From a virus: a stretch of DNA of 64,000 nucleotides. This document shows, piece after piece, positions 1 through 61,932 of the stretch. The notes beneath the pieces are model-generated. The model saw only the letters and a program-made list of their open reading frames with translations, did not search any database and was not told the origin of the DNA. A program made the position numbers and the translations under genes. Location: IMG/VR virus record IMGVR_UViG_3300003320_000766; one strand, given 5' to 3'. The stretch's first letter is position 1, and each line of letters opens with the position of its first letter.

Positions 1-16
1 TGTAGAACGAAGAGAT

Positions 17-97
17 ATGAGCCTATTCGAATTCATTCACCTAATTATATCCTTCGTTAGCTGGATGGCTATAATCTATCTTTTCAACACTTACTAA
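17..97 (+). CDS. Short hydrophobic peptide (may be 5'-truncated by the window)
   Basis: Frame open from base 2; MSLFEFIHLIISFVSWMAIIYLFNTY then TAA at 95-97. Read manually. Confidence 0.35.
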   Translation: MSLFEFIHLIISFVSWMAIIYLFNTY

Positions 98-107
98 ATC
101 TAATTAC

Positions 108-299
108 ATGCCCAGAGAGCTTTCACGATTAGAATTATATTTAAAGCATGTGAACACCGATCTGAATTCTCTAAACATACAATTAAGCCACGAGTTCAGA
201 AATCAGAAACTTAATGCTCACATACGCAAAAGAATCAATTCCACCATCCATAACTTGGATAAAATCAAAATTAAATTAACCAATTACAAACAAGGTTAA
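108..299 (+). CDS. Hypothetical 63-aa basic helical protein
   Basis: ORF track; ends GGT TAA, which is the 5' strand of hammerhead 1. Confidence 0.6.
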   Translation: MPRELSRLELYLKHVNTDLNSLNIQLSHEFRNQKLNAHIRKRINSTIHNLDKIKIKLTNYKQG

Positions 300-340
300 C
301 TGACGAGCCCCACGGCGAAACCCGGAAACGGGTCTTAACC
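294..340 (+). ncRNA. Type I hammerhead ribozyme 1
   Basis: Stem I GGUUAA(294-299)/UUAACC(335-340); CUGACGA 300-306; stem II GCC-CCAC-GGC; GAAA 317-320; stem III CCCG-GAAA-CGGG; GUC triplet, predicted cleavage after C334. Confidence 0.88.
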
Positions 341-353
341 AAAACACATTCCA

Positions 354-635
354 ATGAACGAATTAGAAAAAATTTCTGTGCAATCAATCATGGAATTAAA
401 TACCGAAGCAACGGCTTTAAAAGGTGAGTTAGGGATGGCTGCTTACAGATACTACACAGAATTAGCCAAGATTGAAAAGGAACCAATCACAGAGAAGAAT
501 ACACAGTATACGAAAGATTATACGCAGAGACAACTCACCGAAAAATACCACAGAGAAGAACAGAATCTTAGTTCTCAGTATCGCAAGATAACGAGCAGGA
601 TTGAGGCTTTATGTAAAGCATTAATTGCAGGTTAA
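354..635 (+). CDS. Hypothetical 93-aa coiled-coil protein flanked by the two hammerheads
   Basis: ORF track; helical, charged; ends GGT TAA, the 5' strand of hammerhead 2. Confidence 0.7.
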   Translation: MNELEKISVQSIMELNTEATALKGELGMAAYRYYTELAKIEKEPITEKNTQYTKDYTQRQLTEKYHREEQNLSSQYRKITSRIEALCKALIAG

Positions 636-678
636 CTGATGAGGCAAGCGCCGAAACCAGCGAAAGCTGGTCTTAATC
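630..678 (+). ncRNA. Type I hammerhead ribozyme 2
   Basis: Stem I GGUUAA(630-635)/UUAAUC(673-678); CUGAUGA 636-642; stem II GGC-AAGC-GCC; GAAA 653-656; stem III CCAGC-GAAA-GCUGG; GUC triplet, predicted cleavage after C672. Confidence 0.9.
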
Positions 679-695
679 AAAACCACACGTCTATA

Positions 696-1799
696 ATGAA
701 CCACCTATTTAACTCCGACCCATACGGCGAAGTAATCTGCCGTTGGTTTACTCAACATTCCCCAGCTTCCATATCCCGCTCAAAGGAATGTACACTGGAA
801 ATCCTTTCAAGCCTTCTTATTGGCACCAAAGAAAATAGATACGGTCCTATTCCGGTGCCAGAGCACTTGGTAGTTATTCGCGAAACTATTCGCAAATCAA
901 TCGCCATGAACCTGCCGATTCCTATTCTTGTTCCATGGGGCGGCATCAAAGGGAACATGGAGGACCAGACATTGGATATTGCAGAAGTATCTGCGATCTT
1001 TCAGCTTCTACATTTAGACAAAACTATCCGAGAAATTTACGAACCGGGCCTTCTGATCAACGTCAGGATAGAAGACCTGGGGGCTGAATGGCTCTATCGG
1101 GAACTGTCAGTAAGCCGAAAAATCATCAATTACTCTTTATCTATGGAAAGGTTGATTGATAAGATTAAAGGCGAAACAGCAATCACTGGCATTTCAGAAA
1201 GTACGCTAATGCTTCCTGGAGATTATTTTTCATCCTCGATGGTTTATTCAAACCTATTGTTTGACATGATCAATCAACAAATTGAAAAACCAGAACGGGA
1301 TGTTAACGACATTGACGCGTATTGCACACTGGTAGAGATGGGATGGAAAGGTACTGTCCCTATTATACAAAGGGAATACTATATATCCCGCTATCGCAAT
1401 CTTTATCCGGATAAAACTGAAAAAGATTACATCCGTATGCTGGCAGATTATCTGGGAGGAGCCAAAGCCAGATACGATCTTAACGGAAGGGCAGAGCCTA
1501 CATCTGAGGTCGGTTCATATATCCAAATCACTTTCGTTCCACCTGTCCCAGGAGCACCCTCATCTATTTTTAACAATACCCTCTACTGGAGAAGTGTTCC
1601 TATGTCCCAATCCAGGAGCCATATTGCCCCCTGGAGAGCAAAGGGATATCTTAAGATAGGGGAAGAGACCGTTAAAGGCAAAATCACCAACTTTGGTGAC
1701 CCTGTTTTACAAGAATTGGTTCCATCCACCACTACTATCAGAACTGGTAATAGTCAACAAGACTTTGTAAAAATCAGCACTGACTACGTGATTGAATAA
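696..1799 (+). CDS. Dit1/PvcA (isonitrile/isocyanide synthase)-like protein, divergent
   Basis: PIPILVP..K...LDIAEVSAIFQLLHLDKTIREIYEPGLLINVRIED parallels the PvcA/IsnA pattern (LPAFP.KS..PD.AE..AL..L..L...I...Y.PG..I....D). C-terminal IQITFVP..APWR parallels RLSIHP..TPWH. Start moved from 639 to ATG 696 because 639 lies inside hammerhead 2. Confidence 0.65.
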   Translation: MNHLFNSDPYGEVICRWFTQHSPASISRSKECTLEILSSLLIGTKENRYGPIPVPEHLVVIRETIRKSIAMNLPIPILVPWGGIKGNMEDQTLDIAEVSAIFQLLHLDKTIREIYEPGLLINVRIEDLGAEWLYRELSVSRKIINYSLSMERLIDKIKGETAITGISESTLMLPGDYFSSSMVYSNLLFDMINQQIEKPERDVNDIDAYCTLVEMGWKGTVPIIQREYYISRYRNLYPDKTEKDYIRMLADYLGGAKARYDLNGRAEPTSEVGSYIQITFVPPVPGAPSSIFNNTLYWRSVPMSQSRSHIAPWRAKGYLKIGEETVKGKITNFGDPVLQELVPSTTTIRTGNSQQDFVKISTDYVIE

Positions 1800-1836
1800 T
1801 AAATTAAAAATATTTTTTTATCTCAATTAAATTACC

Positions 1837-1844
1837 AATCTTTG
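1837..1844 (+). promoter_or_regulatory. Possible Bacteroidota sigma-A -7 box (AATCTTTG, one mismatch)
   Basis: Near-match to TAnnTTTG in an AT-rich gap upstream of a terminated non-coding stretch. Confidence 0.35.
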
Positions 1845-1849
1845 TTAAG

Positions 1850-1969
1850 GCAAAGAGATAGACAAGTTTGTTCAATAGCTTTTTTCATAGGTATAGTAAT
1901 GTAGGTAATCCTACAACTCGAACATTCAGCTGCGAACCTAGCCGGTCTCTACTGGCTAGGTTTTTTTTT
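1850..1969 (+). ncRNA. Candidate small RNA
   Basis: Non-coding, between a promoter-like box and a strong terminator; contains UUUUUUCAUAGGU and the hairpin UGUAGG-UAAU-CCUACA. Confidence 0.35.
1935..1969 (+). terminator. Intrinsic terminator
   Basis: AACCTAGCCGG-tctcta-CTGGCTAGGTT stem followed by a T9 tract. Confidence 0.85.
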
Positions 1970-1995
1970 ATTTTAAAAATAATTTTAAGAGCAAA

Positions 1996-2760
1996 ATGAA
2001 AAGTGAAAATCTGTTTGGCATTAAATTTTCAGAAAATGTCGGCCAAATTAAGACACAAGTAATTAATCATATTAATGATCGAATGCTTAGCATTGATTTT
2101 ATCCCAGGTGGTGATCGTACAAACCTTGATAAACTCATGTCTGAAGAGGGGCTTAAACAATATTACATTACTCCAGATGTCATAAACATTTGCCAAAAAA
2201 TAAAAATTAGCAAGCCGTATAATTTAGATTGGATAAAAGCACCGCTGCATGTGAAAAAGCAGTATAATTTTGGTGATACTTTTTTCAGATTTCTATATGT
2301 CAATGGCAGCTATTTTGTCTTATCTTGTCATTCCTACAAAAACAACAAGGGGGGTGTAAGCATAAAAAACTATTTTATGCAGATAGACCTGGGCGCAAAA
2401 AAAATGCAGATTGCTGATGATGAATATGCCGAAACTGCTCTAAAGTTATTTTTACAATTACTTGCCTTTATAGAGTCAACAGAAATTGAAGAGGTAACTG
2501 TTACTCCAGGTAAATGGTCTCCCAAAGAAGAAAAAGAACAGCTTAAAAACCAAGCCGCCTTCCCTATTGTAATGGTAAAAACAAACTGGGTTAAAACTCT
2601 CATTCGAATGGAAGGTTTTGATGTCTCAGGACACATTCGCCTACAGCGCCATGGCCCTAACAATTCGCTGGTAAAATCTATCTGGATAAATCCATATACA
2701 AAAAAAGGATATACACTTAAAGCCGGAAAAATAAAAGAGGAGGAAAATAGTTATGAATAA
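1996..2760 (+). CDS. Hypothetical phage protein (254 aa)
   Basis: Long ORF; C-terminal VSGHIRLQRHGP..IWINPY motif of a kind common in uncharacterised phage proteins. Confidence 0.75.
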   Translation: MKSENLFGIKFSENVGQIKTQVINHINDRMLSIDFIPGGDRTNLDKLMSEEGLKQYYITPDVINICQKIKISKPYNLDWIKAPLHVKKQYNFGDTFFRFLYVNGSYFVLSCHSYKNNKGGVSIKNYFMQIDLGAKKMQIADDEYAETALKLFLQLLAFIESTEIEEVTVTPGKWSPKEEKEQLKNQAAFPIVMVKTNWVKTLIRMEGFDVSGHIRLQRHGPNNSLVKSIWINPYTKKGYTLKAGKIKEEENSYE

Positions 2761-3022
2761 ACCAGATAAAATAGAGGAGAAACCGGTAATAAGTCAAGAA
2801 ATAGTTTCTTTTCTTTCGGACCTAATCTTGCTGACTACATTCGCGAAAAGAAAAGGAGTAAGCAAAGATGCTGTATATTACAATATTCGTAATGGCAGAA
2901 TTAAGGAAGACGATTTGATTTGGATAGATATTTACCAGTACATTCGCTGGAGCCAATATAAGGACTTCAGCTTTAAAGACCATGCATTAAGTAAAACTTC
3001 TAAACGAGCAAGTAAACGGTAA
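2753..3022 (+). CDS. Helix-turn-helix DNA-binding protein
   Basis: LTTFAKRKGVSKDAVYYNIRNGRI, excisionase/MerR-like HTH pattern. Confidence 0.6.
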   Translation: MNKPDKIEEKPVISQEIVSFLSDLILLTTFAKRKGVSKDAVYYNIRNGRIKEDDLIWIDIYQYIRWSQYKDFSFKDHALSKTSKRASKR

Positions 3023-3025
3023 GCT

Positions 3026-3250
3026 ATGTCACTTGTTATATGCAATTCCATAGGAAGCATTGATCTTTGCAGAGGATGTGGTGCAGCGAAACCACATTTA
3101 CATGGCAGCTGTGAGCCTTGTCCAGTGAATAAAGAAGCTCACTGTATAGTGTGGTCCAATATTCCGTCTGATCATTTAACAACTCATAATTCAAATAATA
3201 ATTATCATGATGAAGCCAAGGAATGGGAAGGTGCTAATCCTTCCAAATAA
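3026..3250 (+). CDS. Small Cys/His-rich protein
   Basis: CRGC..PHLHGSCEPC..HC cluster. Confidence 0.55.
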   Translation: MSLVICNSIGSIDLCRGCGAAKPHLHGSCEPCPVNKEAHCIVWSNIPSDHLTTHNSNNNYHDEAKEWEGANPSK

Positions 3251-3512
3251 ACCAACAGAGGTAAGCAAAGGTGGGATAATTATCCCTGAAGCTGCTAAAA
3301 AGGATCAGGACAAAGGTAAAATAGTAGCTATCGGTGAAGACATAACAGATGTCTCTGTAGGAGACCACGTTCTATTTGCCAAGAACAATGTTACCCTCAT
3401 GTCGTATGAAGGAATAAATTATGTCATGGCAAATATTGATGACATAATGGGCGTAATTAATAATTATCAATCGCTCATCCCAAATAATCCTGATGCTCAA
3501 ATTCAAAAATAA
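3207..3512 (+). CDS. groES: Co-chaperonin GroES/Cpn10-like protein
   Basis: MKPRNGKVLI..SKGGIIIP (mobile loop)..GKIVAIG..VSVGDHVLF..DDIMGVI. Start may be 3210. Confidence 0.9.
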   Translation: MMKPRNGKVLILPNKPTEVSKGGIIIPEAAKKDQDKGKIVAIGEDITDVSVGDHVLFAKNNVTLMSYEGINYVMANIDDIMGVINNYQSLIPNNPDAQIQK

Positions 3513-5629: not shown

Positions 5630-5970
5630 ACGAAACGTTTTGCATGTACACAGTGATTGGGTACTTAGCAATTGTAATCAGCACAATATTAGTTGCAATT
5701 TTTTCATGCTTAAACTTCAATAAAAAAATGAAAGTCCAACTTAAAATATTAGACACTGATAAATTCTTTTATGATTCACCAAATGCTGGAGAACCTTCTT
5801 GTCTCTGTAGCAGATGTGGCAAACAAATCCCTGAAGGAGAAAAAATCCTCAGAGTGGCTGTTGGTGCTGATGATATAAAAACAGGCACTGGACAAACTGT
5901 AGAAGATGCCGCCCATGGCTCTGAATTCAGGCTTTGTGAAACCTGTTTAAAAAACATTTCTCATAAATGA
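5617..5970 (+). CDS. Membrane-anchored zinc-finger protein
   Basis: N-terminal TM segment; CLCSRCG...LCETCL. Confidence 0.6.
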   Translation: MFTINETFCMYTVIGYLAIVISTILVAIFSCLNFNKKMKVQLKILDTDKFFYDSPNAGEPSCLCSRCGKQIPEGEKILRVAVGADDIKTGTGQTVEDAAHGSEFRLCETCLKNISHK

Positions 5971-61753: not shown

Positions 61754-61835
61754 ACTATAAATTTAGACGTGTGAAATATTTTAATAACTCATTCCGTGAA
61801 GACAGAATAAGATTTCATTATCTCAACAAAACCCG

Positions 61836-61877
61836 GTGAAAAGCAAGGAATCGAACCTTGATCAACCATTCTTTTCA
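61836..61877 (-). ncRNA. tRNA-like minihelix (acceptor stem + T-arm, no anticodon arm)
   Basis: UGAAAAG / AAUGGUUGAU / CAAGG-UUCGAUU-CCUUG / CUUUUCA-C. Confidence 0.5.
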
Positions 61878-61878
61878 A

Positions 61879-61906
61879 AAATAGGGCAGGAATTCCTGCC
61901 CTATTT
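61879..61906 (-). terminator. Perfect 28-bp palindrome, likely terminator
   Basis: AAATAGGGCAGGAATTCCTGCCCTATTT followed by TT on the - strand. Confidence 0.75.
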
Positions 61907-61932
61907 GCATTCTCAATTACAGTCACAAAATA

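Follow-up and report, generated by a model that had tools for sequence, protein, structure and literature searches.

What does a phage gene encode that resembles the isonitrile synthases, enzymes known, to our knowledge, only from bacterial and fungal secondary-metabolite clusters? The compounds that such synthases make there are metal chelators with roles in virulence and competition. The question is raised by a stretch of 64,000 nucleotides (nt) from the IMG/VR virus record IMGVR_UViG_3300003320_000766 (the window), whose gene at positions 696–1799 had been read, from the letters alone (the sequence-only reading), as an isonitrile synthase gene of the PvcA/IsnA/Dit1 type lying directly behind a ribozyme. 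The source is an uncultured phage, and the only sequencing run found to contain the sequence of the window is a DNA run of a root metagenome; no RNA data set contained it. We analyzed the gene product (P0001), its relatives and their genomic context, and found that the family is specific to phages and represents a diverged version of a type of enzyme already known.

A conserved gene at 696–1799

According to the open reading frame (ORF) list of the window, the coding sequence of P0001 runs on the + strand from the ATG at 696 to the TAA at 1797–1799 and specifies 367 amino acids (aa). A longer ORF beginning at ATG 639 was rejected as an artefact; an exact look-up of the 386-aa form (P0002) returned no record. 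Because the ATG at 639 is the AUG within a hammerhead core, CUGAUGA (636–642), and because every homologue starts at the point that corresponds to 696, we placed the start codon there. A word-indexed search yielded 101 full-length homologues of P0001 with 30–56% identity and E values down to 1e-123, all of them unnamed. An exhaustive profile search of 1.84 billion representatives gave 679 representatives of 50%-identity clusters at E ≤ 1e-3, of which 367 also passed E ≤ 1e-30; single-domain proteins of 350–420 aa make up almost the whole set. The ORF is a real gene.

For counting residues, we used an alignment of 82 diverse family members with a mean column identity of 31%. Seven residues, R48, K85, D94, Y146, E168, W313 and G317, are invariant in all 82 members, and about 26 further positions, mostly charged or aromatic, are conserved in at least 90%. 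Such invariant and near-invariant charged and aromatic positions at this level of identity fit the active site of an enzyme, and judged by this conservation P0001 is quite probably an active enzyme. Meanwhile, an antisense ORF of 68 aa (752–958, − strand) was seemingly conserved in 14 loci; this apparent conservation is an artefact, since the ORF shadows the PIPILVPWG region of the sense gene.

Fold and superfamily of P0001

Searches with P0001 alone gave nothing useful against Pfam, PHROGs and NCBIfam, and a phmmer search of the Protein Data Bank (PDB) with the single sequence gave noise only. An AlphaFold model built on 35 homologues had a predicted local distance difference test score (pLDDT) of 93.7 and a predicted template modeling score (pTM) of 0.89. 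When this model was compared with the PDB by Foldseek, the best eight matches were all PIsnA (9DH4, 9DHM) or PvcA (3E59), with E values from 2e-8 to 6e-7, and the next class, comprising tyrosyl- and tryptophanyl-tRNA synthetases (TyrRS and TrpRS) and cyclodipeptide synthases, appeared from E > 1e-3. The structure search thus ranked no other fold first, and the PvcA fold covers the whole of the P0001 protein. The best nine matches in a structure search of the Swiss-Prot part of the AlphaFold database (AFDB) were AmbI1/2, fungal isocyanide synthases, Dit1, XnIsnA and PvcA, and the named matches among the AFDB clusters were almost all DIT1/PvcA entries. Furthermore, in the ESM Atlas the clusters nearest P0001 carry PF05141 in 41–86% of their members.

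Sequence profiles led to the same superfamily. A profile of the 82 members matched PIsnA (E 8e-5) and PvcA (E 2.4e-4) by hmmsearch, and sub-threshold PF05141 matches were present in 26 of 35 relatives. We then aligned the phage family by hhalign with five canonical synthases from Burkholderia, Streptomyces, Bacillus and Hymenobacter plasmids, which had been retrieved by tblastn with a 40-aa piece of PvcA, and obtained a probability of 96.2% and an E value of 1.5e-9 over 303 aligned columns; a canonical PF05141 gene was found in none of 14 control genomes. From the structure, the sequence profiles and the sub-threshold Pfam and language-model assignments, it is nearly certain that P0001 has the fold and belongs to the superfamily of PvcA/IsnA/Dit1, a superfamily that also includes the yeast Dit1 enzyme, which makes N-formyl-tyrosine for the spore wall. 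The resemblance named in the sequence-only reading is therefore borne out by fold (Foldseek) and by profile–profile homology. The distance from known members is large, with an identity of 13–15% to the IsnA-type synthases (PvcA 3E59; PIsnA 9DH4, 9DHM and 9DHN; AmbI1/2; XnIsnA; PF05141). By its sequences, the P0001 family is a separate, unannotated and almost purely phage-borne sister family outside the curated PF05141, so that the divergent clade proposed earlier takes shape here as the 679 cluster representatives.

Putative active-site residues

The motifs quoted in the sequence-only reading are all present in 696–1799, namely VPWGGIKG (79–86), D94-I-A-E97, Y115-E-P-G118, E126-D127, IQITFVP (276–282) and APWR (311–314). 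The spacing string given for them was right as to the motifs and one residue short between I121 and E126. The first of these motifs had been described as an altered LPAFP.KS, which agrees with the hhalign alignment: the lysine of LPxFPxK(S) is retained as K85 in the loop after strand 1, in 82 of the 82 members, with different flanks (PWG[GS]xK). On the next helix the PDxxE motif is kept, D94 in every member and E97 in 77, with Asp in the other five. The Y.PG motif is also kept (Y115 in 62, P117 in 67 and G118 in 80 members), as is the mid-protein tyrosine of the canonical enzymes (Y146, 82/82). At the end of strand 2, E126 (79/82) and D127 (80/82) lie near the canonical S-D-G, whose Asp is invariant in the five canonical sequences; the hhalign alignment has a four-residue gap here, which leaves the exact equivalence uncertain.

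Compared with the IsnA-type synthases, the phage family differs as follows: LPAFP.KS has become VPWG[GS].K and SDG has probably become ED; RLSIHPQ has become IQ.xF.PP with loss of the His; PWH has become PWR; and there is an extra invariant N-terminal element, R-Y-G-P-x-P-x-P-E, which begins at R48. Together with E168, R299-T300, H309 and R314, this element makes up the family's own conserved features.

A stand-alone gene on phage contigs

In IMG/VR we found 17 loci of the family, on contigs of 30–223 kb with a GC content of 30–58%. No tblastn match to P0001 was obtained in 50,697 GenBank phage genomes, and megablast of 12 kb of the window against GenBank phages gave no match either. Among 185,579 species genomes, a single one carried a family member, on a 10-kb contig of a Bacteroidota metagenome-assembled genome. 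The PvcA-like fold was absent from the BFVD viral structures at E ≤ 1e-3, and the literature searched contained no paper on phage isonitrile synthases.

The gene is a stand-alone one. The neighborhood analysis that had been suggested for the homologues revealed no gene conserved, at the level of BLASTP, across 25 homologue loci; a small neighbor of about 90 aa recurs in four of them only, and synteny of the window was seen only with its closest relative, a JGI metagenome contig (L001). The absence of an adjacent oxygenase, noted in the sequence-only reading, extends to the 57 window ORFs scanned with Pfam, in which no TauD, 2OG-Fe(II) or cupin family was detected at E ≤ 1e-4 (three giant ORFs excluded), and at six homologue loci the flanks annotated with Pfam likewise lacked any iron/2-oxoglutarate (Fe/2OG) oxygenase or cupin. 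Canonical plasmid synthase genes adjoin TauD or P450 genes. In contrast to the IsnA-type genes, the genes of this family are thus phage-borne, without an Fe/2OG partner and outside any secondary-metabolite cluster. The only sizeable recurrent neighbor is a DUF7788 protein of 575–604 aa, encoded downstream of the homologue in five of the 25 loci (L012, 12790–14517; L024–L027, about +1400 from the homologue).

Proposed function and its alternatives

We favor, as the fairly probable reading, a stand-alone early phage enzyme that couples an amine with a carbonyl compound (a phosphosugar), in chemistry akin to that by which isonitriles or N-formyl compounds arise. In this proposal, the enzyme would bind a primary amine, most likely of an amino acid, in a Rossmann-like cleft lined by K85, D94, E97, E126, D127, Y146 and E168. 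The same cleft would take up the carbonyl co-substrate, for which a keto-sugar phosphate (for instance ribulose-5-phosphate) is the likeliest candidate, and a C-terminal sheet carrying R299, H309, W313 and R314 would lie over it. Amine and carbonyl would be coupled by way of an imine, the route proposed for IsnA enzymes. Probably the subsequent C–C cleavage steps, and with them the product, are not those of the canonical enzymes, because the two histidines are replaced by Val/Ala and by an invariant Arg and because R48, E168, R299, H309 and R314 are new invariant residues. The product may be an isonitrile, an N-formyl compound of the kind made by Dit1, or another compound; that P0001 makes a true isonitrile is possible but less likely than not. 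A metal-chelating metabolite and a modification of a nucleotide, tRNA or protein, as suggested in the sequence-only reading, are speculative. Dit1 provides a precedent for a PvcA-like enzyme whose product is other than a free isonitrile (PMC7345447). It differs from the phage protein in being longer and eukaryotic and in working with the P450 Dit2, and no such partner accompanies the phage gene. The formamide of fdPreQ1 DNA was also considered as a product and rejected, since the enzyme proposed for it, DpdN, is PurN-like and Pfam revealed no 7-deazaguanine genes in the 57 ORFs.

A separate observation concerns the best match among the AFDB clusters, A0A2N2W466. This cellular protein of 606 aa bears the name "phosphoglycolate phosphatase"; the model matches its residues 211–605 with an E value of 3e-14, better than any canonical synthase. 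It may be a fusion in which the phage-type domain is joined to a second one; should its N-terminal part be a phosphatase, a phosphorylated co-substrate would fit.

Several points weigh against the favored reading. Curated Pfam and NCBIfam cut-offs are reached by no family member: P0001 has no PF05141 match at E ≤ 1, the best-scoring relative (P0092) reaches 24.6 bits against a gathering cut-off of 26.4 and the others 13–22 bits, and against the NCBIfam equivalog for the L-tyrosine isonitrile synthase PvcA (NF045653) P0001 gives no match and P0100 11.5 bits against a cut-off of 600. The two histidines that are invariant in all five canonical sequences compared are both lost. The RLSIHPQ region aligns to IQITFVP, IHPQ reading F-V-P-P in P0001, and its His falls on the variable position 281 (Val in 30, Ala in 13, Thr in 9 and Cys in 6 of the 82 members). 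In PWR, the former PWH, the tryptophan is kept in every member (W313) and the His position is R314 in 81. The Arg of RLS is not conserved in the phage family either, and the middle third of the alignment between the family and the canonical enzymes (approximately 165–270) is unreliable. We infer the weight of these changes for catalysis from the sequences. Because the scores fall below the curated thresholds and both canonical histidines are replaced, the label of isonitrile synthase is not established; of the earlier call, the superfamily stands and the specific enzyme name does not, and of the PvcA residues to be looked for, K85, D94, E97, Y.PG and Y146 are retained and both histidines absent.

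The same evidence bears on the other explanations. A genuine synthase that acts on L-Tyr or L-Trp with ribulose-5-phosphate and frees the isonitrile amino acid, either with no oxygenase step or with a host enzyme completing the pathway, would account for the preservation of the whole PvcA fold, for the retention of K85, D94, E97, the PG and Y146, and for the PF05141 annotation of the ESM Atlas neighbors. We nevertheless regard it as unlikely, given the family-wide replacement of both canonical histidines, the scores under the family thresholds, and the lack of an Fe/2OG partner in the window or the six annotated flanks and of any BLASTP-level conserved neighbor in the 25 loci. Less probable still is a drift to the chemistry of the wider Rossmann-like clan of class I aminoacyl-tRNA synthetases and cyclodipeptide synthases, for example to an amino-acid transfer dependent on aminoacyl-tRNA or ATP: the structural score to TyrRS/TrpRS and cyclodipeptide synthases is far lower than that to PvcA (Z of ~11 versus 19–20), HIGH and KMSKS are not visible in the P0001 sequence, and the conserved motifs are those common to PvcA, not to the synthetases.

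The protein might instead lack catalysis and act as a binder or decoy, tying up a host metabolite or signal that resembles an amino acid or a phosphosugar; the position of the stand-alone gene among small early genes without known function, and the loss of the canonical histidines, would speak for this. The retention of R48, K85, D94, E126, D127, E168, R299 and R314 at a mean identity of 31% is typical of an active site, and makes this reading very improbable in our estimate. As for a spurious ORF or a pseudogene, nothing but the missing annotation speaks for it; with hundreds of full-length homologues and a confident fold, it is already refuted by conservation and has practically no probability left.

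Hammerhead motifs and the proposed transcription unit

The sequence-only reading had placed a hammerhead ribozyme directly before the gene and had supposed that it processes the mRNA of the enzyme separately. Two hammerhead motifs lie upstream on the + strand. A 63-aa ORF without a family match (108–299, +) is the first gene of a small unit and is followed by hammerhead motif 1 (294–340, core 300–334, predicted cut after C334), which was identified by pattern, structural parse and minimum-free-energy fold, the latter being an exact three-way junction. Next come a 93-aa ORF between the two hammerheads, again without a family match (354–635, +), and hammerhead motif 2 (630–678, core 636–672), a type I motif with stem I open, identified by pattern and structural parse. 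In the strict structural parse, hammerhead 2 has a stem I of 6 bp (GGUUAA/UUAAUC), a stem II of 3 bp and a stem III of 6 bp; stems II and III fold as predicted. Cleavage of this motif is predicted after C672, 23 nt ahead of the ATG at 696. Downstream of the gene, a strong hairpin resembling an intrinsic terminator, with a 13-bp stem followed by a T run, occupies 1934–1973 (+), 135 nt past the stop codon.

Both copies in the window match every core position (C3–A9, G12–A14, the A15.1–U16.1 pair and C17), and in both, stem I, GGUUAA/UUAA(C/U)C, holds the TAA stop codon of the preceding ORF. The pattern had no match in shuffled sequence. Rfam reported no hammerhead in the window at gathering score and none at E ≤ 10 in 1–3000, the stems being minimal. 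In L001, 17–18 minimal type I motifs occur within 13 kb, between almost every small gene and also directly before and after the homologue, with a stem I almost fixed as GGUUAA/UUAACC and overlapping the upstream stop codon. Among the 19 copies of the window and L001, stems II and III remain paired despite sequence differences, and stem I has the compensated variants AGUUAG/CUAACU and GAUUAA/UUAAUC. These paired but varying stems, together with the compensated stem I, give good comparative support for the hammerheads.

The short early unit would thus comprise the 63-aa ORF, hammerhead 1, the 93-aa ORF, hammerhead 2, the enzyme gene as its last cistron and the terminator, and self-cleavage after C672 would yield a monocistronic enzyme mRNA with a 23-nt A-rich leader. 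Type I hammerheads that flank single (pro)phage genes have been described and were proposed to cut transcripts into single-gene mRNAs (Perreault et al. 2011, PMC3088659). The arrangement in the window and L001 matches those arrays; its copies differ from them in their very short stems, in having no Rfam match and in a near-fixed stem I that includes the upstream stop codon. Upstream of the homologue, a hammerhead is absent in 21 of the 25 loci, being present in the window, in L001 and, as a looser match, in L022/L023. Because only four of the 25 loci have it there, the hammerhead is a trait of some phage lineages and not of the enzyme gene; its position directly upstream, as first described, is correct, and the tie to this gene does not hold. 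The hammerhead context exemplifies an already known type of mRNA processing in phages and is not a new link. The motifs of L022/L023 (IMG/VR, GC 58%), at 5885–5928 and 2506–2554, are hammerhead-like and belong to a distant GC-rich lineage; one copy, about 70 nt upstream of the gene, has a mismatch in stem II.

Other genes of the window phage

The large terminase of the window phage shares 27% identity with the terminases of Flavobacterium 'elemo' and Cellulophaga podophages. The window further contains tail-fibre genes, a GroES gene and giant ORFs, of 2950 and 1520 aa. The GroES/Cpn10 co-chaperonin (3207–3512, +; PHROG 3e-16, Pfam 1e-16) is also found downstream of the L001 homologue. The Pfam scan of the 57 ORFs also gave PRTase_3/ComF-like (5e-81), TerD (2e-63) and HAD hydrolase matches, as well as an Rv2179c-like 3'-5' exoribonuclease, an acyl-carrier PP-binding domain, ParB HTH/KorB and DUF6283. 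This gene set is a Ter-type 'nucleoside-like metabolite' module, most likely the block at 59–63.6 kb. ARAGORN detected a complete tRNA-Phe(GAA) at 61835–61909 (−). A "41-nt tRNA mimic without anticodon arm", described at 61836–61877 in the sequence-only reading, is probably part of this ordinary tRNA, since it lies inside it.

Implications for phage biology and enzymology

How such an enzyme would serve a phage can be sketched tentatively. Phages of Bacteroidota and other hosts may carry a widespread, stand-alone enzyme resembling the isonitrile synthases that, early in infection, makes a reactive small molecule from an amine of the host and a pentose phosphate. This molecule, be it an isonitrile, a formamide or a new C–N product, would act on the host; we put this forward as a speculative scenario, more doubtful than not. 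If it were true, the molecule could bind metal centers or disable a defence or metabolic enzyme, and the phage protein would be the first of this chemistry to be encoded by a virus, its product standing for a new class of auxiliary or counter-defence metabolites of phages.

For enzymologists, the family offers a naturally altered active site, with one His replaced by Arg, another His by Val/Ala and, probably, SDG by ED, on which the IsnA mechanism can be probed, and for phage biologists it is a candidate host-takeover or counter-defence enzyme. Several hundred sequence clusters that share the fold, almost only on large phage contigs, always standing alone and with a remodeled active site, point to viral small-molecule chemistry during infection.
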